Positions 6,389 to 60,251 of a DNA stretch of 64,000 nucleotides are shown here, in pieces. The DNA is from Candidatus Latescibacterota bacterium. Its GTDB lineage: Bacteria > Latescibacterota > UBA2968. Where the stretch lies: positions 5,504,001 to 5,568,000 of the forward strand of contig OZ242320.1 in NCBI GenBank assembly GCA_965208125.1, in the 5' to 3' direction. The notes under the pieces were generated by a model. That model ran no database searches and had not been told where the DNA came from. It saw nothing but the letters and a program-made list of their open reading frames with translations. The number at the start of each line of letters is the position of its first letter. Position 1 is the first letter of the stretch. The position numbers were made by a program, and so were the translations under genes.

Positions 6389-6400
6389 AGTGAAAGAATC

Positions 6401-42100: not shown

Positions 42101-42279
42101 CCGATGATTTTGCTATCGTGCCCCTGCCCCTCAAGCCAGTCGGTGAGCAGTGCCTCCTCAACATTGCGATTATTGTCGCGGTCCTGCCAGTTGCCGAGAT
42201 ATGTATAGCCCAGCGCATCCTTGAAAAACGCAATCACGCGCTTCTGCGTAAGAATCTCCCGTTGTCCGACTTTACTCAT
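39163..42279 (-). CDS. hsdR: Type I RM restriction subunit
   Basis: RPDLVLYVNGI...ELK, WHTQGSGKS, DECHR, FTGTP, LLTGFDAP, QAICRVNR. Confidence 0.97.
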   Translation of the reverse strand: MSKVGQREILTQKRVIAFFKDALGYTYLGNWQDRDNNRNVEEALLTDWLEGQGHDSKIIGKVLFELGKVAALGGSKTLYDVNREVYSLLRYGVKVQPDVGEHTDTIWLIDWKNPDNNDFAIAEEVTVTAENTRRPDLVLYVNGIALGVLELKRSTVSVTEGIRQNLDSQKKEFIRSFYTTVQLVMAGNETEGLRYGVIETPEKYWLRWKEAEAHPDAGDNPLLRELSQLCGKERLLDIVHNFIVFDAGIKKTCRHNQYFGVRAAQEQVKRREGGIIWHTQGSGKSLVMVWLAKWIRENITDSRVLIITDRTELDEQIEKVFKGVSEDIYRTSSGADLVRVLNAGDEWLICSLIQKFGTSEEGDIDAFIEDIRRHLPRGFHAKGEIFVFVDECHRTQSGKLHEAMKTVLPSAMLIGFTGTPLLKADKRRSIETFGPYIHTYKYDEAVSDNVVLDLRYEARDIDQNITSQDRIDQWFELKTRGLTNAAKAQLKRRWGTMRQVLSSQDRLQKIVADILLDMETRDRLQSGHGNAMLVSGSIYSACRFFQMFQQTDLADKCAIVTSYRPAPADIKGEETGEGLTEKLRQYDIYRKMLAAHFNEPEDTAMNKVGQFEREVKKRFVDEPGRMKLLIVVDKLLTGFDAPSATYLYIDKQMQDHGLFQAICRVNRLDGEDKEYGYIIDYKDLFRSLERSIRDYTGEAFEGYDNDDVRGLLKDRLQQGRERLEETCEAIKALCEPVEPPRDTADYLRFFCATDDDGQVNDKEPRRIALYKMTAAYLRAYANIANEMREAGYSDDEVREIKAEVGHYEKVREEVKLASGDYINLKMYEPAMRHLLDTYIRAEDSEELSTFDDLTLVELIVERGDAALDALPEGIRKNPEAVAETVENNVRRLIIDEMAVNPRYYEKMSELLDALILQRKQEAIDYKDYLSRIVALTERISNPQTQVSYPSSIDSAALRALFDNLQVRDSALSYDAEPLVDIKAAKALAIDSAIRSVKKADWRGNKFKEREVLRAIKSELDDENLAEQIFAIVKNQQDY

Positions 42280-42785
42280 CCTTCGTCTCCACTACTTTCC
42301 AATGGCCTCCTCTGGCGGACCCGATCCGTGCAAGGACGCCCATTTGTTTCAGCTTACTGATCTGCCACTCGATTCCCCTTGCCGTAATTTCGAGTTGGTT
42401 CGTCAGTTCCGCTGTGGTGATTGAGGGGTTGGCGGCGATCAGGGCCAAAATTTTCTCCCTAGTTTTTTTGTTCTTGGGTAGTTTCTTGGGTAGTTTCTTG
42501 GGTAGTTTCTTGGGTAGTTTCTTGGGTAGTTTCTTGGGTAGTTTCTTGGGTAGTTTCTTGGGTAGTTTCTTGGGTAGTTTCTTGGGTAGTAGCGCGATTA
42601 GTTTTTAGGATAGTTTTGGGGATAGTGGCACTACCAACAGGGAAATCGGGCACTTGATACGCGGCGGAGAACGGGAACCTCAACCACAGACCGTCGCCGC
42701 CCTGAGCGTTGGCGAATCCGCAGACCCATTTCAGGTATTCGTCTCGCCCGGTCTCTTTCCATTCGATGTTCTGACTCTCGCTCAT
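42272..42785 (-). pseudogene. Internally deleted AlbA_2...wHTH gene with a TTQE repeat and a frameshift at an A7 tract
   Basis: MSESQNIEWK...GFANAQGG is fused directly to DGLWLRFPF. After the repeat, a shifted frame reads REKILALIAANPSIT...RIGSARGGHWKV and its stop overlaps the hsdR start region. Confidence 0.75.
42471..42590. repeat. Perfect 12-bp tandem repeat (TTCTTGGGTAGT)x10
   Basis: Ten contiguous identical units; encodes TTQE on the minus strand. Confidence 0.95.
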
Positions 42786-44308
42786 GCCTCTGTATCCCTT
42801 GTCTTCAGACCTGAAAGAGCAGCCCGTCCCTTGTCCGTTAGCCGATACTTCTGTAATGGGCTACTCGGTTTATCAGGGACAGTCCTTTCCAGCAACTCGT
42901 CAGCCAATAGCCGTCTAAGCTGCTGCTCGAAGCTCCTCGTTCGGGTCGAATATCCCGCGACTATCCACAACTCTCTGCTCGTTGTCGCTTCCCGAACACA
43001 CGCTTGTAGCATGGCAATATCCCTGACTGACAATTCAGCTTGCACCCCAGCTTGCACCCCAGCTTGCACCCCAGCTTGCACCCCAGCTTGGCCTGCAAGT
43101 TCTGCCCGCCAAATCTTCGTTACAAATCCCTGGGGAACAGCGAACTCCGGTTCTGGCAAACCCGCTTTCACACAGCGACGGATCATATCCAGCGTTCCGG
43201 TTCCCATTCGTTCGATATATTCCGCAAGGTACATAGATTCTGCCAGCAAAGGATTGCCGGGTACCGACGTGTGCGCGACTCGCAACTTCTCTAATGTCAA
43301 TGGCGGCGGTAGCTTGCCGGGATTCCAGACCTCCAACCGATCCGCAAAAAGCATGACCTGAACGCTACCATTGTCCGTATAGTCGCGGTGCGCCACTGCG
43401 TTGACAATAGCTTCTGTCACAACTTCTTCGGGAATTTCATAAGTACGGGGAGCGCGAGCACTCTCCGCCCGTGTGCCTATTGACCGATTGATCTTGCTCA
43501 ACACGAAGTCCACCGCCTGGTCAACCAACTCGAATACCGTGCCCTTATAGACCTGGTAGGACGGAATCGGTTTGGCTACCTCTGTCCCGTGAAAGTGGGC
43601 ACATCTGACTTCGGAAGAAATGAGATGCCGCTGAGGCGTCTTTCCGAACAACAACACCGCTGCATTCGTCAACCGCCCGTCGTTCAACAGTTTAAGATGC
43701 TCCAACAACTCCTCGGGAGATGTGTCTTCAGCCAGCGGAAACTGCCTGGCTCTGTGTGCAGTGCGAATAAATCGAATGATTCGCTCAAAATCGAGGTCTT
43801 CCAGCACCGCCTTCGCGCAAGGCGCTGCATCAAATGGCCCCCAGCGGATCAATTCTTTGACTTCCAGGTACTCTACCAATGCCGCATAAAGCCCGGTTAC
43901 CAGTTCTGCCTGGGTATTGAATCGTTTCCGAATTAGCCCTGCCTGCGCCTTACCGATCAATGCCTCCATCTTCGGATGTCGGACGTGATTCTCTGTCCCC
44001 TTCACAAAGATCAGACGATGCACACCCAGAGTGGTCGCGCGGTCAAATTCCCGTTCCGTTGGCGACAACCCTTCCGCGTCCTCTGTTCCATAGTCACTTC
44101 CAAATAACCCCACATAGAGATCGCACCGTTCCACTTCATCCAGATAGAGCGCATCGGGCCGTCGATCCGACGCCGGAACCTCCTCGAACAAGAACACCTC
44201 GAAGAACCGCCGCATCAGCGGATCTCCACGCAGATAATCGCGCAACGCCGCTCGCTCTTGTGCGAACTCTGTTTGTACGCTGCTGATGAAAATGCGAAGT
44301 GGGATCAT
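42782..44308 (-). CDS. DUF4062 + RecG-C/HATPase_c_4 + HTH protein
   Basis: RIFISSVQTEF..ER, DLYVGLFG..YG...SPTEREF; EAIVNAVAHRDY; ERMGTG; C-terminal SPLQKYRLT. Confidence 0.82.
   Translation of the reverse strand: MIPLRIFISSVQTEFAQERAALRDYLRGDPLMRRFFEVFLFEEVPASDRRPDALYLDEVERCDLYVGLFGSDYGTEDAEGLSPTEREFDRATTLGVHRLIFVKGTENHVRHPKMEALIGKAQAGLIRKRFNTQAELVTGLYAALVEYLEVKELIRWGPFDAAPCAKAVLEDLDFERIIRFIRTAHRARQFPLAEDTSPEELLEHLKLLNDGRLTNAAVLLFGKTPQRHLISSEVRCAHFHGTEVAKPIPSYQVYKGTVFELVDQAVDFVLSKINRSIGTRAESARAPRTYEIPEEVVTEAIVNAVAHRDYTDNGSVQVMLFADRLEVWNPGKLPPPLTLEKLRVAHTSVPGNPLLAESMYLAEYIERMGTGTLDMIRRCVKAGLPEPEFAVPQGFVTKIWRAELAGQAGVQAGVQAGVQAGVQAELSVRDIAMLQACVREATTSRELWIVAGYSTRTRSFEQQLRRLLADELLERTVPDKPSSPLQKYRLTDKGRAALSGLKTRDTEA
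43037..43090. repeat. 12-bp tandem repeat (AGCTTGCACCCC)x4.5
   Basis: Encodes the GVQA linker in the DUF4062 protein. Confidence 0.9.
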
Positions 44309-44463
44309 GTTAAAAACCTGTTCGCTAACGAGATCGGGTAGAATCATTGCAGACAACTCAACCGAATTGGGGTACATCGCGCATCGGCTCGCACGGCGGT
44401 ATGTTCAGTTCCACACCACCCAGAGGTGTATATCGATGCATATATAGCGCGTACGAGATAGGC

Positions 44464-44564: not shown

Positions 44565-44880
44565 ACTCACTTCAGCACCTCCCATCGATCTGCCCTGGCC
44601 GATCCGACATGACGAATGGCACCAGCGGCACGCAGCTTTGTCAATCGGCTTTGAGTAAGGCTATGATTCATTTCAGGATAGTTTTTGAGATAGTTTTTAG
44701 GGTAGTTTCTTGGGTAGTTTCTTGGGTAGTTTCTTGGGTAGTTTCTTGGGTAGTTTCTTGGGTAGAGGCAATACCAACAGGGGAATCGGGCACTTGATAC
44801 TCAGCAGAGAATGGGAACCTCAACCACAGACCGTCGCCGTCCGGTTCCAGCTTCCACCTGATATTCTGACTCTCGCTCAT
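44565..44880 (-). pseudogene. Second internally deleted AlbA_2...HTH remnant with a TTQE repeat
   Basis: MSESQNI|RWKLEPDGDGLWLRFPFS...(TTQE)5, then broken HTH pieces IIALLKAD and KLRAAGAIRHVGSARADRWEVLK. Confidence 0.7.
44707..44766. repeat. 12-bp tandem repeat (TTCTTGGGTAGT)x5
   Basis: Same unit as 42471-42590; the last unit has one mismatch. Confidence 0.92.
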
Positions 44881-45235: not shown

Positions 45236-45904
45236 TCACGCTACCGTGAATGCCAAGAATGTGTGATACAATTTTATCGGTGAAGCCCCATCACGCGGAT
45301 GACAGCTTGTCCAAACCCACGACTCAGCAACGAGACCCGATGGTTTCAAGTTCTCTTTGGAGCGTGATGTGCGGTTCAGATTGTTGTTAATACCAGTGAC
45401 AGCAGCTTTCGCGTCGCCACTGATCAGATATCCGATCATGAATCCGGTAGAGTGATTCCCCGAGTACTTACCCTTTCGGAAGCGATCAATACCTTCCACA
45501 ACGTACTCGCGGCATAGATAAGTATTGTTACCGTCGATACGCTTGCATTCAATGATCGCGTGAGGATCATGCTCACCAAAACGGTCGAATATCTCAATCG
45601 AAAAAATCGGGATATCGGGCCGGCCATCAGGCACCAGTACATCGGGATGAGAACGAGATTCGGTTCCGGGAAGCACTACCATTTTTTTGTCCCTCAGAGG
45701 ACTTCCAGGTTTCAGTGCTCGACGCATACCATCGCGCAGTCGTTCTGTGAGTTCTACTTCGCCGGTGTCCGTATTGACATCCAGTGACCGCAACGCAAGC
45801 CCCCAGCCATCCTCAATCGTTTGTAGGATCGTCGTGGCAATATCACGCTCAAGATCAATGAACTGGCGACCGCTGGTAGCCGAATCGTCAAGGGGCAACT
45901 TCAT
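45236..45904 (-). CDS. Putative PD-(D/E)xK nuclease
   Basis: GRPDI...IIECKRI; ATGA overlap with the upstream methyltransferase. Confidence 0.6.
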   Translation of the reverse strand: MKLPLDDSATSGRQFIDLERDIATTILQTIEDGWGLALRSLDVNTDTGEVELTERLRDGMRRALKPGSPLRDKKMVVLPGTESRSHPDVLVPDGRPDIPIFSIEIFDRFGEHDPHAIIECKRIDGNNTYLCREYVVEGIDRFRKGKYSGNHSTGFMIGYLISGDAKAAVTGINNNLNRTSRSKENLKPSGLVAESWVWTSCHPRDGASPIKLYHTFLAFTVA

Positions 45905-48828
45905 ACAGCGGTTCCCGAGAAGCTTTCAACAATGACCGAGTCTGCGTCTTCCAGTGCCGACACGCCCATCCAATGTCGATGGGCGGCAGGTTTAATGATC
46001 ACGACCTCGTTGCGACCATGTACCCGAAGTTCGCGCTGACCAATTATTGAGTTTGAAAGTGGAACGGCCAGGCGCTCACCGATCCGGTTAAGAACATCTC
46101 TCAGGTCTCCTTCTGATTCTATAACCTCCAACTCAGAAGGTTTCAAAAGTTTAGAGCGATCTTCGAGAACGAATCGCACAACCCGGAGTGGCGCTTGCTC
46201 CGGAAGATCAAAGACTTCAGCACGCATATAGCGTTGATTCGCCGCGGAGAGCCAGACACCTACTGCCGACTGGAATGTGCGTGCATAGTTCGAGACCTGT
46301 TTAATAGTGGCGGCTTCTACAGAAGCATCCCTGCCCGCCTTCCATTGCCAACTGGCACGCACCAGACCATCGCGTGCGACGATGCGGTCAGCCTCGTCCA
46401 TGTCATACAGGTCGAAAACAGCCTCGTCAAGTGCTTGCCAGTTGGAAGCGGATAGAGAACTTTTTTGCATATCCCGAGCAAGCTGCGTTAGGTGTGCGCC
46501 AGAATCGGAACCCAGGGCCGTTGCGAGATCGGGAACCGGCAGGCGTTCGATGTCCCCGAGCTTGATCCACCGCATCCACAGCCTAAAATTGGAGGCGGAC
46601 ATCAGGAAGAACCAGTATGCGAGCGAAGAACTCAGAATGGCGGCGAGCAAGTGAGCGGCATTGTGCCACGCGGCTGGAAATGTCGCACCGAAAAAGGCGT
46701 TCGTGAAGACGGTATCTTGATCAGCAACGGCAACGACAAGGCGAGAGTCGCGGTTCAGGAATTTCTTGACGAGCAGCAGTGGTGCGCGGTAGATGTCATG
46801 CTTGCGCGGCCCTTTGGCCTTTGATTTGTCAAAAAAAGCCAAGTTATCCGGTACGTTAAATGGTTGAAGGTCTCGCGCGTTGAGGAGCGGAAGTCCGCGC
46901 AAAAAACTCGAATCGCCGCTCCGATCACTGAATGTCAACCCGGTACGAAGTGTCGCATCAAGTTCCCCAAGTTGGTCACCCAGCGTTGGATGGCTCGATG
47001 TCAGCCTGTCCAGCAACGAAAGATCGCGACGTGACCCGAAAAACGCAGCTTTCAGAAACTCCGGTTTTCGGTACCAGTCAGCCAACGGCAACGTGATAAT
47101 ATCGCTGGGCAGTATCTCAAAAGAATGGCTTTTTGCTCCAACCGGAGACCAAGGAACCTTCACAGTGGTAATCGCGTCGCGTCGCAATTTCCGATGCCTC
47201 CCAAATAGGACAAACGCGAGCGTTTCGTTTTTTTGAAATAGCCAATCGGAATGGTTTGACAGATTGACCAACGTCACCGGAGACAGTTTCTTGATGAGCT
47301 GCTGCAAAGCGGTCACCCCGGTTTTGTCCAGACTGAAGAATTGGGCAGTGTTCAGAATCAAGCCGAATCGAGTCTTAGCGGTCGCAAGGCGCATAGCCTG
47401 AGAAACGAAGTCCAGACTTTCACCACGAGGTGGAAACGCACCTTTCGGACCGCCTCGGATGTGGCGTGCAGTGGTGGTCGCTCTGCCTCGATAGCCCCAT
47501 GGCGGATTACCGATAATGATGTCGAATTTCCTCGCCCGCCCCTGTCCAGCAGCCAGACTCCCGGCATCCCACGCGTCACCGACGATGAGAGTTTTGCCAA
47601 TCAGCGACTCGAACTTCAGCGTCTGAGACAAATGCGGGTCTGGATCAAGTTCTAGGGCCGCCAGATAAAGACTGAATGCGGCGACGCGCACCGCAGCTTC
47701 ACTGATATCTACACCGTAAATTTGTTGGTGCAGCGTGGAATGGATCAATTCGCGACTCGGCTTGCCTCCGTTAGATTGGAGATTGACCAACCTGCGCAAA
47801 GCTTCGACCAAGAAGACGCCGGATCCACAGGTCAAATCGAGTACGGTTTCCTCTCCAGTGAGTCCTTCCATGGTCTCATCCAGAACCAGAGAAACGAGCG
47901 AAAGTGGGGTGTAGAAAACGCCCGTTTGGGAACGGGTATTAGGATCCGATGGATCCGCGTGAGCAAACTGCTCATAGATTGCGCTTATCAGTTCCACCGG
48001 TATTACGTCGAACTGATAAGGAAAGAGCGTTGTTTGTCTCGACTCGGGATCTACGGCTTCAAGGAAGTCCGCGACTCTGCGGAGGTGTTTGGCCTGCGGC
48101 GCAAATAAGCTTTCTGAAGGAAACATGTCGCCATTGAAGATATCTCGAAGCCAACTGAACAACCGCTTCGTGGCAAGAGGGACACGCAGTATGGAGGCAA
48201 GGGTATGATGGTCGTAATTGCGCTTAAGGAATTGCTCTGTAACAATTTCTCGATCTATCAGGTACTGGGTGAATATCGATCTACAGATCAGCCCTTGAGC
48301 GCCGGAACGGTCCATTCCCAACTCTATGAGGTCACGCTCAAGTACGAAAAGATCGGACAGAAGTTGTCGGCCCACACTGGTCCTGCGATTAACAGCACTT
48401 GTTTGTTGCCAGAACCGTCCCGTTTCCATGGCGAGCCGACCTGCGAACGCATCGAGGTTATTCAACTCATTCTCAATCTTTTGGAATGTCTTCAACCTGT
48501 GCTTGGTCGCATCTCCGGTTTCTCGAGGTCGGCCAAAACCGTTGTAGAGATCAATCCTCTCGGGTGAAATTATCCACAACAGAGGGGCGAAACCCTGGTT
48601 CCAGATTTCTCGGCGCCACCGGGCGACCTGCTCGGCAGATGGAACTTCCGATTCGAACTTAAAATAGACAGTAAGTGCCGAGTCACCGCGCCACAAGGCA
48701 TCAGGGGAAAACTCCCGGGCCTGGCACTTCATACGAGCATCTTGGTCCAGATATACGCCATGCGCTGGCTCGCCATTCTCCAGATAGCCGGTGGCTTCAA
48801 GTACTTCGTGTAGGGATTGGGCGATCAT
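45901..48828 (-). CDS. Eco57I/type IIG-like N6-adenine DNA methyltransferase with a TRD region
   Basis: ISAIYEQF, GVFYTP, LDLTCGSGVFL, IYGVDIS, IIGNPPW; TaqI_C-like AILSSSL. Confidence 0.88.
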   Translation of the reverse strand: MIAQSLHEVLEATGYLENGEPAHGVYLDQDARMKCQAREFSPDALWRGDSALTVYFKFESEVPSAEQVARWRREIWNQGFAPLLWIISPERIDLYNGFGRPRETGDATKHRLKTFQKIENELNNLDAFAGRLAMETGRFWQQTSAVNRRTSVGRQLLSDLFVLERDLIELGMDRSGAQGLICRSIFTQYLIDREIVTEQFLKRNYDHHTLASILRVPLATKRLFSWLRDIFNGDMFPSESLFAPQAKHLRRVADFLEAVDPESRQTTLFPYQFDVIPVELISAIYEQFAHADPSDPNTRSQTGVFYTPLSLVSLVLDETMEGLTGEETVLDLTCGSGVFLVEALRRLVNLQSNGGKPSRELIHSTLHQQIYGVDISEAAVRVAAFSLYLAALELDPDPHLSQTLKFESLIGKTLIVGDAWDAGSLAAGQGRARKFDIIIGNPPWGYRGRATTTARHIRGGPKGAFPPRGESLDFVSQAMRLATAKTRFGLILNTAQFFSLDKTGVTALQQLIKKLSPVTLVNLSNHSDWLFQKNETLAFVLFGRHRKLRRDAITTVKVPWSPVGAKSHSFEILPSDIITLPLADWYRKPEFLKAAFFGSRRDLSLLDRLTSSHPTLGDQLGELDATLRTGLTFSDRSGDSSFLRGLPLLNARDLQPFNVPDNLAFFDKSKAKGPRKHDIYRAPLLLVKKFLNRDSRLVVAVADQDTVFTNAFFGATFPAAWHNAAHLLAAILSSSLAYWFFLMSASNFRLWMRWIKLGDIERLPVPDLATALGSDSGAHLTQLARDMQKSSLSASNWQALDEAVFDLYDMDEADRIVARDGLVRASWQWKAGRDASVEAATIKQVSNYARTFQSAVGVWLSAANQRYMRAEVFDLPEQAPLRVVRFVLEDRSKLLKPSELEVIESEGDLRDVLNRIGERLAVPLSNSIIGQRELRVHGRNEVVIIKPAAHRHWMGVSALEDADSVIVESFSGTAV

Positions 48829-50128: not shown

Positions 50129-50632
50129 TTATCGATTTTTCGACTCCCTTTCAATGACCCTTGCCAATTGTTTTTGATTCCACGGTACAACCGAAATCTT
50201 GTTGTCGGTTATAGCTTTTGGAAGCCGTGATGGTGGAGTGTTGCCTTTGTGCATGGCGACGACACCTTTCCCCATGGCAAGGCTCTCTCGTATTTCCCAA
50301 TCCACCCATTTGCTACTGGCGGTGTTGTCCGACACATAAACGACGGTGACAGAGGATTGACGAATACGATCCCGAATGCCCCGCTTGATGTAATCAGCTT
50401 TCTTGCTATCAAAAGGTTCTCGCAGTGACCAGTCATTGAACTCAATGTTGCTGTTTTCGTTTTTAGCCTGACCACGTAGCAAATTGACTTCATCAAGGTC
50501 ATCCGAAGAGAAGCTAATAAAGACATTGCGTTTTTTGCCTCCGTCACGTTCCCTGAGAGATTTTTTAGCACGTTCTTCGAGCGTTCTGAGTTCATTTGGG
50601 GCTAAACCCCGGCCACTGCCACTGCCACCCAT
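50129..50632 (-). CDS. ThsB-like TIR protein (DUF1863/MTH538-type) with an N-terminal MGGSGSG extension
   Basis: NVFISF, FNDWS, IRQSSVTVV...T..SKWVDWEI. Confidence 0.88.
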   Translation of the reverse strand: MGGSGSGRGLAPNELRTLEERAKKSLRERDGGKKRNVFISFSSDDLDEVNLLRGQAKNENSNIEFNDWSLREPFDSKKADYIKRGIRDRIRQSSVTVVYVSDNTASSKWVDWEIRESLAMGKGVVAMHKGNTPPSRLPKAITDNKISVVPWNQKQLARVIERESKNR

Positions 50633-50634
50633 GG

Positions 50635-51231
50635 TTATCTCCTTTCCTTTGCATTGTTAATCTCAACGCATGCTATACACACGCCACAAGGTTCTTCACC
50701 ACCGGCATGACATGAATAGGCTTGTTTGATTCCCCGGTCATTCGCAATTACCAAAACGTCTCGCTTCGAAAACTCAATTAACGGTGTGAGAACAAAAATT
50801 CGCCTGCCCATTGCGATTTCAATCATTCTTTCACATTCTTCCACGAAGCCTTTAGTCTGGTCTGGAAAAAGATGGTCGGCAGGATTGAGTAGGCCAAGCG
50901 CGATGCTATCAGCCTGAACCTTGAAGGCATGGGCTGCTCCTGCCAAGACAAAAAGGAGATTGCGACCTGGCAAGAAGGCATCTTCGTTGATGCGCAAATT
51001 GCTGTCTGTAAGTCCACTCGGGATTGTCTTTCCAAAACCAGACAAATCCATGTAGGTCACTGGCGGTAGGCCGAATTGTTCGTGAAGTCGCTGACAAGCT
51101 ACCCATTCCTTATGTACTCCAAGTTGCCCGTAATCGATAAAGAGGGGAAACAATGTGGCTCCCTCTTCATGGGCCAGAAGACTCATGAGAGTTGAATCAA
51201 ATCCACCAGATACAAGAGTCACAATACCCAT
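50635..51231 (-). CDS. QueC-like PP-loop protein (Cap9-like)
   Basis: LVSGGFDS, DYGQ, FLPGRN, FPD, SC...PCGVCIAC Zn site. Confidence 0.92.
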   Translation of the reverse strand: MGIVTLVSGGFDSTLMSLLAHEEGATLFPLFIDYGQLGVHKEWVACQRLHEQFGLPPVTYMDLSGFGKTIPSGLTDSNLRINEDAFLPGRNLLFVLAGAAHAFKVQADSIALGLLNPADHLFPDQTKGFVEECERMIEIAMGRRIFVLTPLIEFSKRDVLVIANDRGIKQAYSCHAGGEEPCGVCIACVEINNAKERR

Positions 51232-51911
51232 GCCTTAGATTCCTCCTTTGCCACTTTCATTACAATCCAAACTGCAAGGTCGAATTGATCAGGCGAGTAT
51301 CCGAACACCTGGGCGTGTTCAATAAAAGAATCTTCCAGTACTTCGTACTTGCTTAACGTCGAAACTGATTTGAGTGGGGTGTCTGTGAGACCAACCCAAT
51401 TCAAATACGCCAAAACATGTACATCCAGAATCGCAATGTGCTTTGCGTAACCGATGTTGCGGAGAAACAGACTCGCCTGCTTAGGACCCAAACCCGCTAC
51501 CTCAGCGACCAGAACGCGCCGTGCGCTACGAACATCACTGGCACTGTTGAGTAATTTTAGAATTGATCCTCTTGAAGTGTATAGACGTTCTGCTGACCGA
51601 CGAATCTGATTGGCCCGAATACGATAGAATGGATAGCCCCCAGAAAGTGCTGTCACCGTATCCTCTTCATATTGTTCAAAGCATGTGTTTCGTAGTGGTT
51701 GTGATAGCAAACACATACCGTCCATGCGTTCAACAGCCGCGTGAACAGCTTCGAATTTTACCCGGCTACCTAAGATACAGGATACAAGTTCTCGCCATAA
51801 ATCATCTTCGCTGTACTTCTTCCACGAGACTGAGGTACACTCGTCAAGTGTGCTACACACGTCCCGGATCGCTTGTTCAATCGTTGGAAGCGAAAAACTA
51901 ATAATCGCCAT
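51219..51911 (-). CDS. 8-oxoguanine DNA glycosylase/N-glycosylase-like HhH protein (Cap11-like)
   Basis: ELVSCILGS, VAGLGPKQASLFLRNIG, AILDVHV. Confidence 0.88.
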   Translation of the reverse strand: MAIISFSLPTIEQAIRDVCSTLDECTSVSWKKYSEDDLWRELVSCILGSRVKFEAVHAAVERMDGMCLLSQPLRNTCFEQYEEDTVTALSGGYPFYRIRANQIRRSAERLYTSRGSILKLLNSASDVRSARRVLVAEVAGLGPKQASLFLRNIGYAKHIAILDVHVLAYLNWVGLTDTPLKSVSTLSKYEVLEDSFIEHAQVFGYSPDQFDLAVWIVMKVAKEESKAWVL

Positions 51912-51912
51912 G

Positions 51913-52947
51913 CTATTCGTCTCCTTTGCTGGCCTGGATTAGAAAATCGGCTTGTTCGTTAGTTGCGTACTTTTGAATGAACGATTCTACATCTCCAAAA
52001 TGTAGTGCTTCGTATAAGCTTGCCATAAATTTGTGATAGAAACTCAAATTGTGCATCAAGACCGTTTGGATGTACGGTAGTCCAGAGCATTGCCCCCATT
52101 CTGTCTGATGGCGGATCAAGTCCCATTGCTGGAAATGTAAAAGCCTACCTGTTTCATGATCAACAACGGTTTGACACCATTCTAAACCATCGAAACTATC
52201 GGCTCCAGCGAGCGAGTAAGCAATAATCGAAAGGGGATTTCCAGTGCCGAGTAGATGAATCGGACAATATACACCCAGCGCATTGAGGGCCTCTCGGATT
52301 TTCCTTACCGTTCGGGTTCGCTCGATAATACCTTCTCCAAGCTCACGTTCTGGGACAGCCAAAAGTAGGGGGTAAAGCTGCTCTGCCGTTCTGCGGGCCG
52401 CATCCGGTAGCAATGTCGTGTCTCCATGGATTATCGGAGTCACTGTTCTGAAGGCATGTTTCTGATCTCGAATAACACCGGCCACTACATCTTTGGCAAT
52501 TGACTCTGAGGTATTGGGTGGCTGCTGGTTATCATAGCAGAAGCAGAGATGGTGATGGTCAGAACCAGCGATCTCCTGGAACCTCTCCGGATGCCAGTCT
52601 TTATCGTCTTTCCAAAAGCTTTCGTAATTCCCGCTGTCCATGAGGATCACGGCACCGCGTTCCTTGCCTTGCGTCAGCGCGGTATCTATGCGCAAGCGCT
52701 GATCTTCGGTACAATGAGCGATATCATAGGCAGATACCAAAAATAGCGGATAATGGGCTCCGACAAGAAGTTCTACATAATCAACAGGTGAAAGGTTTGT
52801 CTTAACACTCGAAACCGATGGAAAAAAACAGGGCAGTCGAAGGGGTGTCTGTGAGATATATAGCTCCGTGCTTCGATCTATTACCATAGTAATTTCCTTG
52901 GTCGAGTGCACAATTTCATAGCCATTAATAGGCGTTTTCAATGGCAT
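51913..52947 (-). CDS. tRNA-guanine transglycosylase (TGT)-like protein (Cap10-like)
   Basis: P.FFPSVSS, LMDSGNY, IHLLGTG, GADSFDG, HNL. Confidence 0.85.
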   Translation of the reverse strand: MPLKTPINGYEIVHSTKEITMVIDRSTELYISQTPLRLPCFFPSVSSVKTNLSPVDYVELLVGAHYPLFLVSAYDIAHCTEDQRLRIDTALTQGKERGAVILMDSGNYESFWKDDKDWHPERFQEIAGSDHHHLCFCYDNQQPPNTSESIAKDVVAGVIRDQKHAFRTVTPIIHGDTTLLPDAARRTAEQLYPLLLAVPERELGEGIIERTRTVRKIREALNALGVYCPIHLLGTGNPLSIIAYSLAGADSFDGLEWCQTVVDHETGRLLHFQQWDLIRHQTEWGQCSGLPYIQTVLMHNLSFYHKFMASLYEALHFGDVESFIQKYATNEQADFLIQASKGDE

Positions 52948-53017: not shown

Positions 53018-53962
53018 TTACTTTGGATTAATTACCACATCTCGGCGTGCGCACCACATAGTGTGTTCACGAGAAATGGTCTCCTCAACCTGCTCTATAA
53101 GTGCGAGAAAATCATCCTCTTTCGTTATATTCGAAGCTACCGTTTCCTGCTCCCCCAGTTCTTGGGCGGCGAGGGAATAAGACTGAGTCAACTCACTGTA
53201 GCGCTTCATCTGACTCCAAGCGATAGCAGAAGCAGCACCGGTCATCAGCAATGGGACCACGTTTACCGGCAAGCTACTTGAAGCAGCCCAAATAATTGCG
53301 AGAACAATGGCAAGAACCTGTAGTACCACAACTGTCCAGAACCAACAATTTTCCTTCCTTGAATTGAACGTGGCTTTATTTGAATACCATATTTTTTGAT
53401 CGCGAAGCCTCGATTCAAGATACATATCCCGCCGTTCATCCACGGATTTCCGGCGCATATCACTCATAAATTGACTAAGGGCCTGAACATCTGGGTCTAA
53501 GCTATGCGCCAAATCTTTTGGGCTAGAAGGTCTCGCCTTTCTTATTTCTTTCAGTCTCTCGATAAATGATTGCTCAGCGGTGCTGTCTTCCTTGAACGGT
53601 GCTGCCTTCATCATGAATCGCCATGTAGCGGTTTTTGTGGACTCAGCAATGGCGCGGCAATCAAACCACACCTTATCGTCCCGACGTACATGGGATACCA
53701 AAGTGAGAATGACTCCAATTACCAGAATGATCGCCAAAACAATACAAGCCCATTTGACGGCTGCGACCGGAACTATCGTCGTAAGGGCAGCACCAACACT
53801 CCCCAAAAGAAGACAACCAATATGGCACTTCTGCAAACAAAGATAACGCCATTGTGCTGAAAGTGAAGCCTGGTCGGCACTCTGGTATAGAGCCGGGAAG
53901 TGCTGGTCCCCAATACTGGAAGATACTGGCTCTTGATGTTTCTTCAGCACATTGGACATCAA
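53018..53962 (-). CDS. SLATT/DUF4231 four-TM protein (CBASS 4TM-type effector)
   Basis: ADQASLSAQ, WFDCRAIAESTKT..WRFMM, Y...RLRDQ..WY, EETISREHTMW; two TM hairpins. Confidence 0.85.
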   Translation of the reverse strand: MMSNVLKKHQEPVSSSIGDQHFPALYQSADQASLSAQWRYLCLQKCHIGCLLLGSVGAALTTIVPVAAVKWACIVLAIILVIGVILTLVSHVRRDDKVWFDCRAIAESTKTATWRFMMKAAPFKEDSTAEQSFIERLKEIRKARPSSPKDLAHSLDPDVQALSQFMSDMRRKSVDERRDMYLESRLRDQKIWYSNKATFNSRKENCWFWTVVVLQVLAIVLAIIWAASSSLPVNVVPLLMTGAASAIAWSQMKRYSELTQSYSLAAQELGEQETVASNITKEDDFLALIEQVEETISREHTMWCARRDVVINPK

Positions 53963-54014: not shown

Positions 54015-55286
54015 TTAAACTTCCGTGCGATCTAAGTCCGGCTTGATCAGCCTCACCTGGCCTGTGAGAAGTTGCTGCATCATACCTTGCTTGATAGCGC
54101 GGGCCTTGTCCCTGCGTCGCTCCAACGCGGCGGTCTCGGCGTCTATATCGGAGAGAACGGCAGCAATGGCGCGTTGTTCGTTAAGCTGAGGCAACACAAC
54201 GTTGTAGGAGCTTCGAATAACGCTTGGATGAGCTTTCAGGGTATAATCGAAGACCTTACGTGAATGCTCATTCTGCAGGTGATATGCAAGATAGCGATAG
54301 TCAATGGATGATGTCCTGATACGCATATAACCACAGACATTGGTAACTGAGAATCGGTGTTTGGGTCGATAAAAAAAATGTCCGCCGCCATCAACAGACC
54401 ATGTAATCAGTTCCTCATCGAACATGTAATCGCCATACGAACCAAATAGGCCGTTAAGATGGACAGACGACGAGTAAATTGGGTAATCTCCAGGCTGTCG
54501 ATCAATGTCCTTCTGTGAAATCACCTTACCTCTAAAGAGTTCGATGTCACCTCGTTGTTCTAGTTCCCCGAGACGCTTAGTTTCCCACTTCTCACTGAAA
54601 CCCGGCAGGCGAGTCTTGTCAGTGAGAAGTTGCTGCATAGCGGCCTGCTTGACGGCTCGCTTTTTGGAGATTAGTTCCTCCAACGCGTCAAGCAATCCAT
54701 CCATATCCGACAACACCTCGGCGATGGCGCGTTGTTCGGTAGGAGGTGGAAGAGGAATGTTCAGATAACGGAGTGTTCCCAATGCTATAAACTTCTGAAT
54801 TCCACCGTCTAAGCTGTCTTTCAAATAGGTCTGGAATGACGGTGACGCCATTAAATGGATCAAGAATGTTGGTAGTACTTTTTGCGGCTTTATAAGTGCA
54901 ACATTTTTGATACAGAAATCTGGTTCAAAATCGATTAACACAGTACTCCCAATCGTCCCTATCATGGACATCAGAATGTCATTAAGATCTACCTTTGATC
55001 GCTTGTTGATTCTATCGGCATCTTGCTCCGAAATACATGAAATATTTTCAAGATCAAGGCTACCGTTTACTATATTTTTGGAAGTTATAAGGGGGACACC
55101 TGTACTATAGAATCGGGGGGAATCGTGTGTACCATCTCTAACATCGCAAATTGTCTCGAGTTTTTGAATTGACCATTCTTCCGGAATCATCCCCACCTCT
55201 GTACGCTTGTAACCCACTGGTACCTCTTCCGATAGGGTGTATTCAGCTTCAAGGGCCTTGCCCATTGTCTTTTGTACCTTACTCAC
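54015..55286 (-). CDS. hsdS: Type I RM specificity subunit
   Basis: GYKRTEVGMIPEEW; two TRDs each followed by EQRAIA..LSD.D...MQQLLT. Confidence 0.95.
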   Translation of the reverse strand: MSKVQKTMGKALEAEYTLSEEVPVGYKRTEVGMIPEEWSIQKLETICDVRDGTHDSPRFYSTGVPLITSKNIVNGSLDLENISCISEQDADRINKRSKVDLNDILMSMIGTIGSTVLIDFEPDFCIKNVALIKPQKVLPTFLIHLMASPSFQTYLKDSLDGGIQKFIALGTLRYLNIPLPPPTEQRAIAEVLSDMDGLLDALEELISKKRAVKQAAMQQLLTDKTRLPGFSEKWETKRLGELEQRGDIELFRGKVISQKDIDRQPGDYPIYSSSVHLNGLFGSYGDYMFDEELITWSVDGGGHFFYRPKHRFSVTNVCGYMRIRTSSIDYRYLAYHLQNEHSRKVFDYTLKAHPSVIRSSYNVVLPQLNEQRAIAAVLSDIDAETAALERRRDKARAIKQGMMQQLLTGQVRLIKPDLDRTEV

Positions 55287-55392: not shown

Positions 55393-56347
55393 TCAAGTAG
55401 GAGAAACTCCTATCTGCTGAATAAATTCACTCCACAGACGCTTAGCGGCGTTCTCTGGAGTGATCTGCCCCTGGTCATTTCTAAAGCCTATAGTTAGTAT
55501 TGACGAGATACTGCTTGTAACCGTCCGATTCTATGTAGAAGATGCCATTTGCTATATTGGAGTCAGCGTTTTCCGAGAACGAGTAGGATATATCACCCAA
55601 CCCCATACGGCCGTTCCCGCAATGTATAGTGATGTGCGCTGTACTCTGGTTCCGCAGGCGTGCCCTATTGACGATTGTGCATCCGAACGAACTCGGTCCG
55701 TGAGATACAAAACGCCCGCGCAAATCGTCAATCGTATTGATCAGGTCAATCTGCTGCTGAAAGTAGTCCCGGATGGTCGCAAATGCGGTCTCGCGGAACT
55801 CACTGCGGTCTATTTCGTCGAAATCTTTCTGTATCCGATAAGAAGGAGCCGCTGGCTGTGTGTCCATAGTCCCTCCAGAGAAAGGAGTGTGTTCTGTACC
55901 AGACACAGTATCCCTACGAGTTTCAATAATACGCCGAAGTTCCTGGACGACATCAAGATAGGCACTGTTCTGGTTCATCCACTCGCTGATGGGTTTGCCA
56001 TCGCGTGGCAGCACTTTAAGCTCATGTATCGGTAAAGAAAACCAATCGCAAGGCTCGATAATAATCGCTACAACATGTACTGCACCATCCCTATGGCGCT
56101 CAAGTGCCCGCTTCATTTCACGATTGACGCAATAGTCGGATGCCAGGAAATCCGGACTAACCAGCATCAAGAAGAGATCACAGGACTCAAGCTCCTTGGT
56201 AATCTCGGCATCAATGTTTCCACCCGCGAGAATTTCACGATCAAACCATGCATCAATAAGCCCCTCAAAACGAAGGGGTGCCAAATGGGTGTGTAGTCGA
56301 TTCAGAGCTTCATCATCTCTGTGTGAATATGAAATGAATACCTTCAT
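55393..56347 (-). CDS. TIR-domain protein with a probable frameshift near its 3' end
   Basis: MKVFISYSHRD...LLVSPDFLASDYC-like segment (LMLVSPDFLASDYCVNREM). The frame stops at 55481, but a shifted frame continues ITPENAAKRLWSEFIQQIGVS* to 55393. Confidence 0.8.
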
Positions 56348-56740
56348 TGCATTAATCCTCACTTTAGTATAGAGCTTCTTGCCACGTGGCGTGGCTGACA
56401 TCCTTTCACAGTGATAGACGCATATTTACAGACCGTTTTAATACGCACGAAAAAGGCCATGTAATTTTTTTATCAAGCTATTGAATATACCGAATCTTTA
56501 CGTTTCTGGCAAAGCTGAAACCATAACGGAAGAGCCTCTTATATCCTAAAAAATCATGCTCTTTGAAGTTGTTGATGATCAGGAGGCTAAAACAGTGGGA
56601 TTAACCAGGGGAATATGGGGGAGAAGTCCAGTGACTTGTGAAGTGGAAGGTAGTCCTGTCTCTGGGACGGAGAATATCTGAAGCGCTATCTCGGAAATCT
56701 CAGAGTGACAGGGATCTGACTTGATATGTTGCTGGTTAGA

Positions 56741-57815: not shown

Positions 57816-60251
57816 TCATAGCACAATCCCCATCTTCTTCAAATGTCCCTCAACCTTCGCGCTGAAATCATCCACCTCTCGCTCCAACTCCGGAAGCGGA
57901 CGGGCATAGCGCTCTTCCAGTTCTTTTATTCGTCCTGTGAGGTGCTGTGTAAGTCGCTGCACCTCTTCCTGAATATCGGCTTGAATACTTGCGAACCACT
58001 TGTCCTCAACCACCAGTGTCTTGATCTCAGCCTCGGTAAGCATTGCGTATCGAGCCAGCACCTTTTGATCCAGCGCGGATTGGCTATCCCTAACAGCCTT
58101 ACTCGCCCTGGACTCAACGCCAATCAACTCCAAGCAGCACGAGAGAGCATCCCGTTCTTCGTCACTATCCGGTTCGTCCCGGATGATCTTAAGCCGCGTC
58201 GTCACCCCGGTTTTGGTAACCTTGCCTTTGTCATTGGTGGCGTCTTGCAACAAACCGTCCTCGCCCGTGTGTTCTTCGACAAATTCCTCCAACTCGCGAG
58301 CAGCAGTCTCTTGATCGGCTTGTAGCACCTCAATCGCAGCCTGATCTATAGCGAAGTAGCGCGCGACAATCAATCCCGGAGGAATCAGATCCATTTTATA
58401 CTTATTCTGCTTAATAGTCAAATCCGGCGTCTCTTTAATCTTCCTTTCCTTGTCCTCAATGATCCCACGCGGTTTGGCAGCCTCAGCCCAACCGTCGTCG
58501 GCAATGAGATACACATCGTCCTGCACAATCTCGTTCCAATAGTCCATCAGCCGCTGGTAAATATCGTAAGTGTCGAGCAACGGCAAATCGGCAAAACGCG
58601 CGAGCAGGTCTTCCGACAGGATGTGGATGATTTCTCTGGGATTAACACCTGTATCAAGCTCCTTGAGGAGCGGATCGTGAGTCTCCCGCCAACCATCCAG
58701 CACAGCCGAGACTTGCGTCATATAGCACTTAAACTCGTCGTGGTCGAGAATCGCATCCTTCACCGTCTCAACCCGAGGCTCGCTATAGCCCGCGCGACCA
58801 TTGCCGATGAATAATGCCTGACGTAGCGAAGGAAAGACCTCCCAATAATCACCCAGCGAGTCCAGATCTCGGTCTGGAATGCCACCATGCAAATGTGCAT
58901 CAAGATCGTGCAAATCTTCCGGCTCGCTGGAGTCAATATAACGCGGAATATTGAGGTTGTAGTCGTTAGCAGGACTGGCAATCTCGGCCATCGGTACCAT
59001 GCGAGAATAGCGCGGCAATTCGGTCTGCTTATTGAACACATCAACAATCCGGTGTATATCCTGCGCGCGCAAGCGGTTCTTATTGCCATCCTTGAGGAAC
59101 CCTTTACTCGCGTCAATCATAAAGAGGCCAGTACGGGCATGGGCATTCTCCTTATCAATAACCAGAATACACGCGGGAATACCAGTGCCGTAGAACAAAT
59201 TGGCAGGCAGGCCGATAATGCCCTTAATGAGACCGCGCTGGATGAGGTTCTTGCGGATATCCGCCTCCTTATTGCCGCGGAACAATACGCCATGCGGCAG
59301 AATGATCGCGCCCTTTCCCCTACTCTTGAGCGACGTAATGAGGTGCAGGAGAAAGGCATAGTCGCCATTCTTTGCCGGAGGGATACCGTATTCAAAGCGC
59401 CCGTACTCATCGTGCTCTGGATTGAGACCACTGGACCACGCCTTGGCGGAAAAAGGCGGATTGGCAACGGCAAAGTCGAAGGTTCTGAGATTATCATAAG
59501 GATTTTTGAAGTACGGAGCAGCCAGCGTGTTGCCATTATATAACTCGGCAGTTGGGTGACCGTGCAGGATCATATTCATCCGCGCGAGCGACCATGTGGC
59601 ATTGTCCATCTCCTGTCCGTATATCGTAATCCCATTCGGGGCCTCATCCGCGGCCTTGAGCAGCAGCGACCCAGAGCCGCAGGTCGGATCGTAAATCGTC
59701 TCGTCCTGACGGGTGTGCGGGCCAATACCCACCACCTTCGCCATAATCCGCGACACCTCAGCCGGTGTGTAAAACTGTCCCTTGCTCTTACCGGACTCGG
59801 TGGCGAAGTGCATCATCAAATACTCGTATGCATCGCCCAACAGATCATCGCCCTCAGCCCTATTACCGCGAAGGTCGAGACCCTCGAAAATGGCGACCAA
59901 CTTCGACAACCGGTCTTGCATCTCCTTACCCGCACCCAGCTTGCTCCCGTCGTTAAAGTCAGCCTGATCAATGACGCCCTGGAGATCATTGGCCTCGGCG
60001 AGTTTACCGATGATTTTGTTAATTTTATCGCCGATCTCCTTGTCGCCCTTCAACTTCACCATATCGGCGAAACTACCCCCATCGGGCACTTCAATGAGCG
60101 CGTCTGGATCGCCTGCGTACCTGTCCGAGATGTATTTCATAAACAGCAGTGTCAGGACGTAATCCTTGTACTGCGAGGCATCCATACCACCGCGCAATTC
60201 ATCGCAACTTTGCCAGAGTGATGAATAGAGTTGGGATTTTTTAACAGCCAT
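57816..60251 (-). CDS. hsdM: Type I RM methyltransferase subunit (long form)
   Basis: GQFYTP, YDPTCGSGSLL, ANPPF, PHGVLFRG, NLNIPRYI. Confidence 0.97.
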   Translation of the reverse strand: MAVKKSQLYSSLWQSCDELRGGMDASQYKDYVLTLLFMKYISDRYAGDPDALIEVPDGGSFADMVKLKGDKEIGDKINKIIGKLAEANDLQGVIDQADFNDGSKLGAGKEMQDRLSKLVAIFEGLDLRGNRAEGDDLLGDAYEYLMMHFATESGKSKGQFYTPAEVSRIMAKVVGIGPHTRQDETIYDPTCGSGSLLLKAADEAPNGITIYGQEMDNATWSLARMNMILHGHPTAELYNGNTLAAPYFKNPYDNLRTFDFAVANPPFSAKAWSSGLNPEHDEYGRFEYGIPPAKNGDYAFLLHLITSLKSRGKGAIILPHGVLFRGNKEADIRKNLIQRGLIKGIIGLPANLFYGTGIPACILVIDKENAHARTGLFMIDASKGFLKDGNKNRLRAQDIHRIVDVFNKQTELPRYSRMVPMAEIASPANDYNLNIPRYIDSSEPEDLHDLDAHLHGGIPDRDLDSLGDYWEVFPSLRQALFIGNGRAGYSEPRVETVKDAILDHDEFKCYMTQVSAVLDGWRETHDPLLKELDTGVNPREIIHILSEDLLARFADLPLLDTYDIYQRLMDYWNEIVQDDVYLIADDGWAEAAKPRGIIEDKERKIKETPDLTIKQNKYKMDLIPPGLIVARYFAIDQAAIEVLQADQETAARELEEFVEEHTGEDGLLQDATNDKGKVTKTGVTTRLKIIRDEPDSDEERDALSCCLELIGVESRASKAVRDSQSALDQKVLARYAMLTEAEIKTLVVEDKWFASIQADIQEEVQRLTQHLTGRIKELEERYARPLPELEREVDDFSAKVEGHLKKMGIVL

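Follow-up and report, generated by a model that had tools for sequence, protein, structure and literature searches.

A glycine-rich leader on a Cap9-linked ThsB-type TIR protein from a Latescibacterota genome as a probable N-terminal deazaguanylation tag

The window analyzed here, a 64,000-nt stretch of contig OZ242320.1 (assembly GCA_965208125.1, positions 5,504,001 to 5,568,000) from a Candidatus Latescibacterota bacterium, harbors an operon of five tightly packed minus-strand genes ending in a TIR gene, the product of which begins with a glycine-rich N-terminal extension (the leader) that is the subject of this work. In operon order, the genes encode a SLATT membrane protein, a TGT-like protein (Cap10), an OGG-like protein (Cap11), a QueC-like protein (Cap9) and, last, the TIR protein. 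The TGT and OGG genes are 1 nt apart, the last 13 nt of the OGG gene are shared with the beginning of the Cap9-like gene, and the QueC and TIR genes are separated by 2 nt. The features of the operon and of the leader, in window coordinates, are:

53018..53962, minus strand: membrane protein with SLATT_3 and SLATT_1 (DUF4231) domains, 314 aa, presumed effector (PF18184, 7.2e-34; PF18181, 9.3e-32)
51913..52947, minus strand: Cap10-like TGT-family protein, 344 aa (PADLOC TGT, 8e-26)
51219..51911, minus strand: Cap11-like OGG / HhH-GPD glycosylase, 230 aa (PF22175, 1.6e-26; NF002305, 7.5e-28, below its cut-off)
50635..51231, minus strand: Cap9-like QueC-family ATP-dependent ligase, 198 aa (PF06508, 1.6e-32; PADLOC QueC)
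50639-50643, minus strand: AGGAG ribosome-binding site, identified from the sequence, within the last QueC-like codons and with a 6-nt spacer to the TIR ATG
50606..50632, minus strand: flexible Gly/Ser-rich tail MGGSGSGRG, TIR codons 1-9, with Gly2 as the proposed acceptor
50549..50605, minus strand: amphipathic helix LAPNELRTLEERAKKSLRE, TIR codons 10-28, proposed docking element for Cap9 and probably Cap10
50531..50548, minus strand: variable linker RDGGKK between helix and TIR fold, TIR codons 29-34, comprising the least conserved leader columns and lacking modelled secondary structure
50129..50530, minus strand: ThsB-type TIR domain, codons 35-167 plus stop, with an invariant W112-E113 (PF08937, 3.7e-25; PADLOC ThsB models)

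The TIR open reading frame (ORF; 50129-50632, minus strand) encodes 167 aa, and the N-terminus of its product reads MGGSGSGRGLAPNELRTLEERAKKSLRERDGGKK-R-NVFISF, with codons 1-34 corresponding exactly to the span 50531-50632. The original prediction, made from the sequence, had placed about 34 residues ahead of the first TIR strand (beta-A, NVFISF), and the domain limits bear this out. The Pfam match to ThsB_TIR begins at residue 38 and ends at residue 129, and the closest solved TIR structure (8fz9_A from B. cereus, 1.8e-12) aligns, from its residue 3 onward, with residues 35-159; residues 1-34 therefore constitute a true extension. Its description of a gene starting 2 nt past the QueC stop with AGGAG upstream also matches the coordinates, since the TAA stop of the QueC-like ORF spans 50635-50637, the TIR ATG spans 50630-50632 and the gap is 50633-50634. 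A longer form of the protein is ruled out by an in-frame TAA located 9 codons before this ATG, with no start codon in between, and inspection for a downstream start likewise favors the annotated one, the next in-frame ATG being codon 119. The TIR protein matches the PDB entries 8fz9, 6lhy, 9b7d and 8wcf by both sequence and fold. Residue E113 is invariant in 41 sequences and aligns with the Glu of the W-V-x-Y-E motif in the ThsB structures 6lhy and 9b7d, which we take to be catalytic. In an AlphaFold2 model built on the 41-sequence alignment (mean predicted local distance difference test score, pLDDT, of 78; predicted TM-score, pTM, of 0.71), residues 1-10 are disordered (pLDDT below 50) and residues 12-28 helical; a loop spanning 29-34 then leads into the TIR fold, which is confidently predicted for residues 35-165.

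The helix of the leader is markedly amphipathic, with a hydrophobic moment of 1.65 per residue for residues 12-28, as compared with 0.68 +/- 0.33 for shuffled sequences, of which 0.15% out of 2,000 reach this value. Across 29 Cap9-linked TIR sequences from many phyla, G2 is retained in 93% and is at least 90% conserved in the family alignment (A1). The Gly/Ser run and residues L15, L18, E19, A22, K23 and L26 are also conserved, and residues 28-34 are variable. The start of the protein, MGGSGSG, fits the acceptor motif MGGS / M(G/S)G(G/S)GG, with Ser at residue 6 where the published motif has Gly. A start of the form M[GS]G[GS]G is found in a single one of the 8,826 ORFs of at least 100 aa in the same genome, each read from its first ATG, and that ORF is the TIR gene itself. 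An initiator Met that precedes Gly is removed from the mature protein. An N-myristoylation-type reading of the MG start was rejected, as bacteria are not known to have an N-myristoyltransferase. Homologs of the TIR protein number 1,740 at E <= 1e-3 and stem from many bacterial phyla, some archaea, and plasmids of cultured Rhizobium and Agrobacterium. The best 120 of these are 161-184 aa long and 71-100% identical to the query, and 117 of them begin with MG[GS], the three exceptions being one protein with a GTG start translated as V, one that starts with MVGG and one whose ORF call extends too far upstream of the others.

The motif referred to above was defined in type IV cyclic oligonucleotide-based antiphage signaling systems (CBASS). 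According to Wassarman et al. (2025), the N-terminal extension of the type IV CBASS cGAS/DncV-like nucleotidyltransferase (CD-NTase) starts with M(G/S)G(G/S)GG and carries an N-terminal 7-amido-7-deazaguanine (NDG) on G2, and a G2D substitution or deletion of the motif abolishes defense. The QatBC paper PMC13279940 gives 'MGGS' for CD-NTases and 'MGTS' for QatB.

The enzymes encoded upstream of the TIR gene were examined for the residues that this chemistry involves. The Cap9-like protein matches the Cap9 structure 9nto_B (1.8e-10) in addition to canonical QueC structures, and presents S8, G10, D12, S13, R90, N91, D124, C174, C182, C185 and C188 as invariant in 27 sequences. Of these, S8, D12 and S13 correspond to S18, D22 and S23 of the Cap9 SxGxDS motif, F122-P123-D124 corresponds to Y115-Y116-D117, and the four cysteines are those that bind Zn. 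The possibility that this gene is the housekeeping QueC was ruled out by the existence of a separate canonical QueC elsewhere in the genome, which scores 216 against the NCBIfam QueC equivalog model (cut-off of 150 bits), and by the score of the window copy, which at 107 is below this cut-off. The 5.75-Mb genome also encodes, outside the operon, a QueD-like protein and a QueE-like radical-SAM protein, and 7-carboxy-7-deazaguanine (CDG) is hence plausibly available to the cell. For the Cap10-like family profile, the best PDB match is Cap10 itself (9ntn_A, 1.1e-16), followed by archaeosine TGT (1e-6). Residues D104, S105, D139, H231 and D253 are invariant and align with D73, S74, D122, H226 and D248 of Cap10, which are five of its six nucleobase-reading (D73, S74, D122, K154) and catalytic (H226, D248) residues.

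To assess how the leader is distributed, one genome per species was scanned, yielding 42 TIR loci, of which 30 encode an intact TIR protein directly after a Cap9-like gene. The leader conservation in QueC-linked TIRs that the original prediction requires was recovered in this set: a (M/V)GG start is present in 26 of the 30 Cap9-linked TIRs (counting two GTG starts and one Gly run that follows a second ATG two codons downstream), as opposed to an MGG start in none of the 10 TIR relatives without Cap9 (Fisher p = 1.2e-6, computed on loci that are related and not independent). Those 10 loci comprise five in which a core of 52-59% identity follows a different leader (MARQRTIKFPPKRG...), one helix-turn-helix fusion, three starting near beta-A and one ambiguous case. 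The two remaining loci are an in-frame Cap9-TIR deletion fusion (L025; L-numbers denote individual loci) and a locus cut by a contig end (L024). The same TIR core is found leaderless or with a different leader where Cap9 is absent. Nine related loci were inspected for a second TIR gene, and five second TIRs start directly at beta-A (MAK(K/R)KIFVSYD...) and none carries a Gly-rich leader; three of the nine ORF calls are ambiguous, and one protein starts with MGSSQ... well upstream of beta-A. The pattern extends to the 150 best 50%-identity cluster representatives out of 2,212 matches at E <= 1e-3. Among them, 40 start at beta-A and none of these has an MG start, 60 carry a 13-60-aa extension, with Gly2 in 35 and MGG in 29, 42 have no recognizable beta-A near the start, and 8 have longer extensions. 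From the co-occurrence with Cap9, the leaderless second TIRs, the genome-unique start and the starts of the cluster representatives, the leader is, at the level of sequence, a modular add-on that travels with Cap9.

The ancillary genes accompany the leader in most cases. Of 28 operons encoding a leader with Gly or Ala at position 2, 27 carry Cap10, 25 carry Cap11 and 19 encode a SLATT protein, and two others among the 28 carry a MAP3K_TRAF_bd/TPR-S protein. A pair of related loci from Methanothrix-type metagenome-assembled genomes departs from this arrangement:

L037, 6332-7468, and L038, 6347-7462: damaged Cap9-like loci with an SGDIDS loop and a lost Zn cysteine

In both, the Gly of the Cap9-like loop is replaced by Asp (SGDIDS), the last Zn-binding Cys is replaced by Arg, and Cap10 and Cap11 were not detected within the locus. 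The TIR protein retains the helix (EMERLEEMARR...) and has lost the Gly tail. This pattern, which represents one evolutionary event since the two loci are close kin, is what would be predicted from the sequences if the helix docks and the tail accepts, and the loci may be binding-only derivatives.

A complex of the Cap9-like protein (27-row alignment) and the TIR protein (41 rows) was modelled, and obtained a score of 0.64 (0.64, 0.63 and 0.67 in individual runs) versus 0.00 for the best of three controls, with at least 71% of contacts in common among runs and a partner pLDDT of 73. On the TIR side, the confident contacts are restricted to residues 9-10, 15, 18-19, 21-23, 25-27 and 29-30, with none arising from the TIR domain. 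On the Cap9 side, residues 19 and 109 are among them; these are the counterparts, by alignment, of M29 and L104 in the cleft that was defined experimentally for CdnD binding (M29/L104/S135). A triple mutation of this cleft in Cap9 (M29E/L104E/S135K) was reported to abolish defense (Wassarman et al. 2025).

The operon shares most of its components with type IV CBASS, which is described as CdnD plus Cap9, Cap10, Cap11 and a membrane effector (PDB 9nto, 9ntn). As in those systems, there are QueC-, TGT- and OGG-like genes, the partner protein opens with MGGS... and continues with a helix through which it docks on Cap9 (here as a prediction of the model), the characteristic residues of both enzymes (SxGxDS in Cap9; D/S, D, H and D in Cap10) are kept, and SLATT-type effectors are associated. 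Unlike in type IV CBASS, the signaling enzyme is a ThsB-type TIR protein (PF08937) and not the CD-NTase CdnD, and no CD-NTase was matched in Pfam and PADLOC scans of the five operon proteins and three nearby ORFs. The signal would therefore derive from NAD rather than being a cyclic oligonucleotide. The acidic residues of helix alpha1 with which Cap10 clamps CdnD (E38, D42, D45, D65) are mostly not conserved here, and only E59 aligns; such a loss is to be expected given that the partner differs from CdnD. With respect to Thoeris, the pairing of a ThsB-type TIR protein with a SLATT membrane protein resembles the type VII system (TIR plus the SLATT effector ThsH, with canonical cyclic ADP-ribose as signal; Yirmiya et al.), which is described as a two-gene system without Cap9, Cap10 or Cap11; the likeness is by SLATT domain. 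QatABCD differs in that no ATPase (QatA) or TatD (QatD) was matched in the same Pfam and PADLOC scans, in that PADLOC assigns QueC and TGT rather than Qat models, in the presence here of TGT and OGG genes, and in the QueC-like protein itself, which at 198 aa belongs to the short Cap9 type and has canonical motifs, whereas QatC is extended and remodelled (PMC13082051). A further parallel is the conjugation by Cap2/Cap3 (E1/E2-like), which acts on CD-NTases in type II CBASS and, as described by Yirmiya et al., on TIRs in some Thoeris operons. There, too, a terminal tag on the signaling enzyme lets ancillary enzymes prime or restrain it, and a single ancillary module works with CD-NTases and TIRs alike. 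Cap2/Cap3 act on a C-terminal Gly tail by ubiquitin-like chemistry, as opposed to the N-terminal Gly and nucleobase proposed here by analogy.

The concept of a TIR protein handled by these enzymes is not new, having been published as a prediction. Yirmiya et al. (bioRxiv 10.64898/2025.12.03.692087, December 2025) described Thoeris operons with cap9, cap10 and cap11 which, like the present one, contain a ThsB-type TIR protein and an effector; they proposed that the TIR is treated in the same way as the CD-NTase in type IV CBASS and reported AlphaFold 3 models of ThsB with Cap10 (interface predicted TM-score, ipTM, of 0.79) and with Cap9 (0.62). The text of that preprint reports no experiment on cap9/10/11 Thoeris operons and is silent on the Gly motif and helix at the TIR N-terminus, on co-occurrence statistics, and on degenerate and leader-swapped variants, some of which may be contained in its figures or supplements. 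It was the only source linking TIR to Cap9-11 in literature searches, which turned up no experiment addressing TIR deazaguanylation. The survey of the QueC family in PMC13082051, which places 67% of Cap9 genes beside a CD-NTase, makes no mention of TIR.

Taken together, the co-occurrence with Cap9, the leaderless second TIRs, the unique start, the invariant enzyme motifs and the confinement of predicted contacts to the leader make the assignment of the TIR leader as an N-terminal deazaguanylation tag for a Cap9-type, QueC-family enzyme well supported computationally, with the adduct itself assigned by analogy. The locus as a whole would quite probably, by the same analogy, encode a Thoeris-like TIR signaling system that uses type IV CBASS ancillary genes and in which the leader combines a Gly2 acceptor tail with a Cap9-docking helix. 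The suggestion in the original prediction that the Gly-rich leader is a portable modification tag grafted onto a TIR is accordingly supported by the motif, co-occurrence, intact enzyme motifs, docking model, covariation and leader-swapped cores. The chemistry it cited was right for Cap9, and went too far for QatC, whose conjugation reaction is inferred and not demonstrated in PMC13279940.

In the mechanism that we envisage, removal of Met1 would expose the alpha-amine of Gly2 on the flexible Gly/Ser tail, and the amphipathic helix would dock in the substrate cleft of the adjacent Cap9-like enzyme. Cap9 would activate (adenylate) CDG with ATP, drawing this substrate from the host's own preQ0 pathway, and attack by the Gly2 amine would yield an N-terminal NDG (+176 Da). 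The TGT-like Cap10 would then bind the NDG tail in its nucleobase pocket, keeping the TIR protein inactive or possibly transferring it to a target, a step that the OGG-like Cap11 may reverse. Upon infection, the TIR protein would be released or activated and would produce an NAD-derived signal, which would open the SLATT membrane effector and abort the infection. The Met removal, Cap9, Cap10 and Cap11 steps are modelled on Wassarman et al., and the NAD signal and SLATT activation on Thoeris work.

Several observations weigh against a deazaguanylated leader. The adduct is reached by analogy, and four of the 30 Cap9-linked TIRs lack the (M)GG start, with one having Gly2 only (L017), one starting with MAG (L011) and two having no Gly (L037 and L038). 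A phmmer search of leader residues 1-41 against the PDB (E <= 10) returned only the artificial GSGSG linker of 7pno_B (E 0.95) and did not match the CdnD chains of 9nto and 9ntn. The comparison of the leader with CdnD draws on the motif and peptide printed in papers. The QueD-like and QueE-like genes score under their curated cut-offs, and K154 of Cap10 aligns with a non-Lys position, in a gapped stretch of the family profile. In the model of the complex, TIR residues 1-8, Gly2 included, lie outside the confident contacts, so that entry of Gly2 into the Cap9 active site is only a proposal; the multimer model anticipated in the original prediction places the leader helix on the Cap9 cleft and does not confidently place Gly2 in the active site. 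The score of this model may also mirror likeness to 9nto, because the Cap9-CdnD complex is already solved, and the calibration of the score, in which 58 of 80 solved complexes and 2 of 110 mismatched pairs attain this mark, holds only roughly because the analysis used its own alignments.

Part of this evidence would be accommodated if the leader were a docking or regulatory element only, its helix tethering the TIR protein to Cap9 and/or Cap10 (for instance as an inhibitory scaffold), with no nucleobase on Gly2 or with a different Cap9 reaction. The confident contacts of the model do come from the helix and not from the Gly tail, the helix persists without a Gly tail beside the motif-damaged Cap9 of L037 and L038, which indicates that binding can outlive catalysis, and the QatC reaction is itself unsettled in the QatBC paper (PMC13279940). 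We nevertheless consider such a role distinctly unlikely, as a docking helix alone hardly explains why Gly2 and the Gly run occur in 26-27 of the 30 linked loci and in none of the 10 unlinked ones. The ATP- and base-binding motifs of Cap9 and the base-reading and catalytic residues of Cap10 are, in addition, invariant, and the Gly motif is the proven acceptor in type IV CBASS. A leader that is merely a generic flexible linker or a self-association helix of this TIR clade, unrelated to Cap9 and with a Gly run due to compositional chance or to the tight gene junction, appears very improbable. Gly/Ser runs are common linkers, the sole PDB match of the leader is an artificial one, and the monomer model is of low confidence in this region; the leader, however, follows Cap9 linkage strictly and is absent from second TIRs of the same operons, its start is unique among the 8,826 ORFs of its own genome, MG is found in 0 of 40 representatives starting at beta-A versus Gly2 in 35 of 60 with a 13-60-aa extension, and the conserved helix residues coincide with the predicted Cap9 contacts. 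The notion that the annotated start is wrong, with translation beginning downstream and the leader being an untranslated or coupling region, can draw on the general uncertainty of start calls and on nothing further, and we assign it a negligible probability. It is countered by the AGGAG 6 nt upstream, the location of the next in-frame ATG at codon 119 and the stop 9 codons upstream, by the protein-level conservation of the leader across many phyla, with synonymous and conservative changes, and by several loci, L002, L009, L010, L016, L017 and L023 among them, in which no start codon other than the ATG preceding GG lies between the TIR core and the stop upstream of it.

Within the deazaguanylation-tag reading, a more specific scheme can be put forward that we regard as speculative and unlikely. 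Rather than reading the tag passively, Cap10 might be a working transglycosylase that inserts the NDG-tagged TIR N-terminus in place of guanine in host tRNA or in phage RNA or DNA; throughout the family, its catalytic Asp/His pair and the residues that read the base do not vary. With several TIR protomers attached to one polynucleotide, the oligomeric state that TIRs need for catalysis could be reached, and excision of the conjugate by Cap11 would return the system to its starting state. The leader would in this case be a portable cassette for either a CD-NTase or a TIR, in which helix binding and tail modification are separable, as the Methanothrix-type loci suggest.

Protein deazaguanylation has been described very recently, and is proven for type IV CBASS CD-NTases only and inferred for QatB. 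The TIR family contributes a second, unrelated enzyme fold with the same acceptor motif, which makes both the generality of the tag and the downstream Cap10/Cap11 step testable, and the TIR output (NAD-derived signals) is different and easily assayed. Natural variants, namely leaderless loci, swapped-leader loci and damaged-Cap9 loci without a Gly tail, provide ready controls.

Plasmid-borne relatives offer the corresponding cultured, tractable hosts. A tblastn search with Cap9 against plasmids matched 142 records, and among the five examined no CD-NTase operon was found; these records contain TIR-linked Rhizobium-type operons and a different QueC trio. At least 13 records from Rhizobium, Neorhizobium and Agrobacterium plasmids present about 51-54% Cap9 identity. 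The Rhizobium-type variant operon was located at:

L043, 3912-8484; L044, 3900-7062; L055, 2927-7531: a TIR fused to the Cap10 N-terminus (460-467 aa), followed by OGG, QueC and a Gly-leader TIR (155 aa)

The leader TIRs of these operons start with MGGGGGGNW... or MGGSSTGGW..., and their neighbors include a DUF4231/SLATT gene, a further TIR, a carbohydrate-kinase-like gene and a TRAF-binding/TPR-S protein. The QueC trio was observed on Neotabrizicola, Cupriavidus and Ralstonia plasmids (L045, 4661-7285; L046, 3655-6256; L047, 4723-6274) and consists of a protein of about 443 aa (annotation: nucleoside 2-deoxyribosyltransferase), a QueC-like protein that shares about 32% identity with the window copy and a hypothetical protein of 210-220 aa, the only translated copy of which (L045) has no MG start. 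When viral contigs were scanned using the Cap9 alignment, 44 loci were obtained, mostly about 25-32% identical to Cap9, which we take to be phage queC. The strongest match (L055, 56% identity) is one of the Rhizobium-type TIR operons. No neighboring ORF with an M[GS]G[GS]G start was obtained by a pattern scan of these 44 loci, the single match, in L055, being spurious.

Further variation was recorded among the surveyed loci. In L025, from a Latescibacterota metagenome-assembled genome, the Cap9 ORF (6248-7324) continues in frame into the TIR at about residue 56, and the deletion, which removes the leader and the first TIR strand, probably marks a decayed copy. Loci L026, L027, L029, L031 and L035 are those with the 52-59% identical TIR core; they keep WVDWEIRESLAMGK, carry the different conserved leader MARQRTIKFPPKRGKLTIRQIEQ... 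and have no Cap9 nearby, and in L029 (TIR at 6917-7498) an IS200-like transposase lies upstream. Locus L039 (MQMGGGH...) was considered as a possible Cap9-free Gly-leader TIR, but read from this start the ORF shares 72 nt with the one upstream, and it could also begin at a later start codon; being ambiguous, it was kept as unlinked and non-MGG. The 295-aa protein encoded upstream of it has no Pfam match. Loci L006 and L017 are without Cap11 and have shorter Gly runs. In L015 (3268-4599) and L021 (6926-8257), SLATT was not detected and the adjacent gene encodes a MAP3K_TRAF_bd plus TPR-S protein (1e-46 to 6e-56), which may be an alternative effector or sensor.

In the window, the operon sits in a defense island (39163-60251) nested inside a type I restriction-modification system. 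The surrounding genes are listed below, with strands where assigned:

38439-39161: YgjP-like peptidase
39163-42279: HsdR of the type I restriction-modification system
42782-44377: DUF4062-HATPase_c_4-Fic_C protein, 531 aa
45236-45904: 222-aa ORF after the N6-methylase gene, with no family match
45901-48828: N6-methylase, 975 aa
49011-49892, minus strand: TIR_2 protein, 293 aa, flanking the operon and starting with MILTPSD..., without a Gly leader
54015-55286: HsdS of the type I restriction-modification system
55481-56401, minus strand: ThsB, 306 aa (PADLOC PDLC00420, 1e-59), flanking the operon and starting with MSATPRG..., without a Gly leader
57816-60251: HsdM of the type I restriction-modification system

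Among genomes of the same genus, a full-length ortholog of the TIR protein is present in 0 of 20, three of them presenting distant TIR matches (30-35% identity, from query residue 13-34), and copies with 76% identity are found in 2 of 16 genomes from another family of the same order. This patchy distribution among relatives fits a mobile accessory system. Tandem peptide repeats were also noted in ORF translations of the island. QAGV occurs four times near the C-terminal part of the 531-aa DUF4062-HATPase_c_4-Fic_C protein, and TQETT occurs five times, together with its complement in overlapping frames, around 44668-44880, where it looks like an intergenic tandem DNA repeat.

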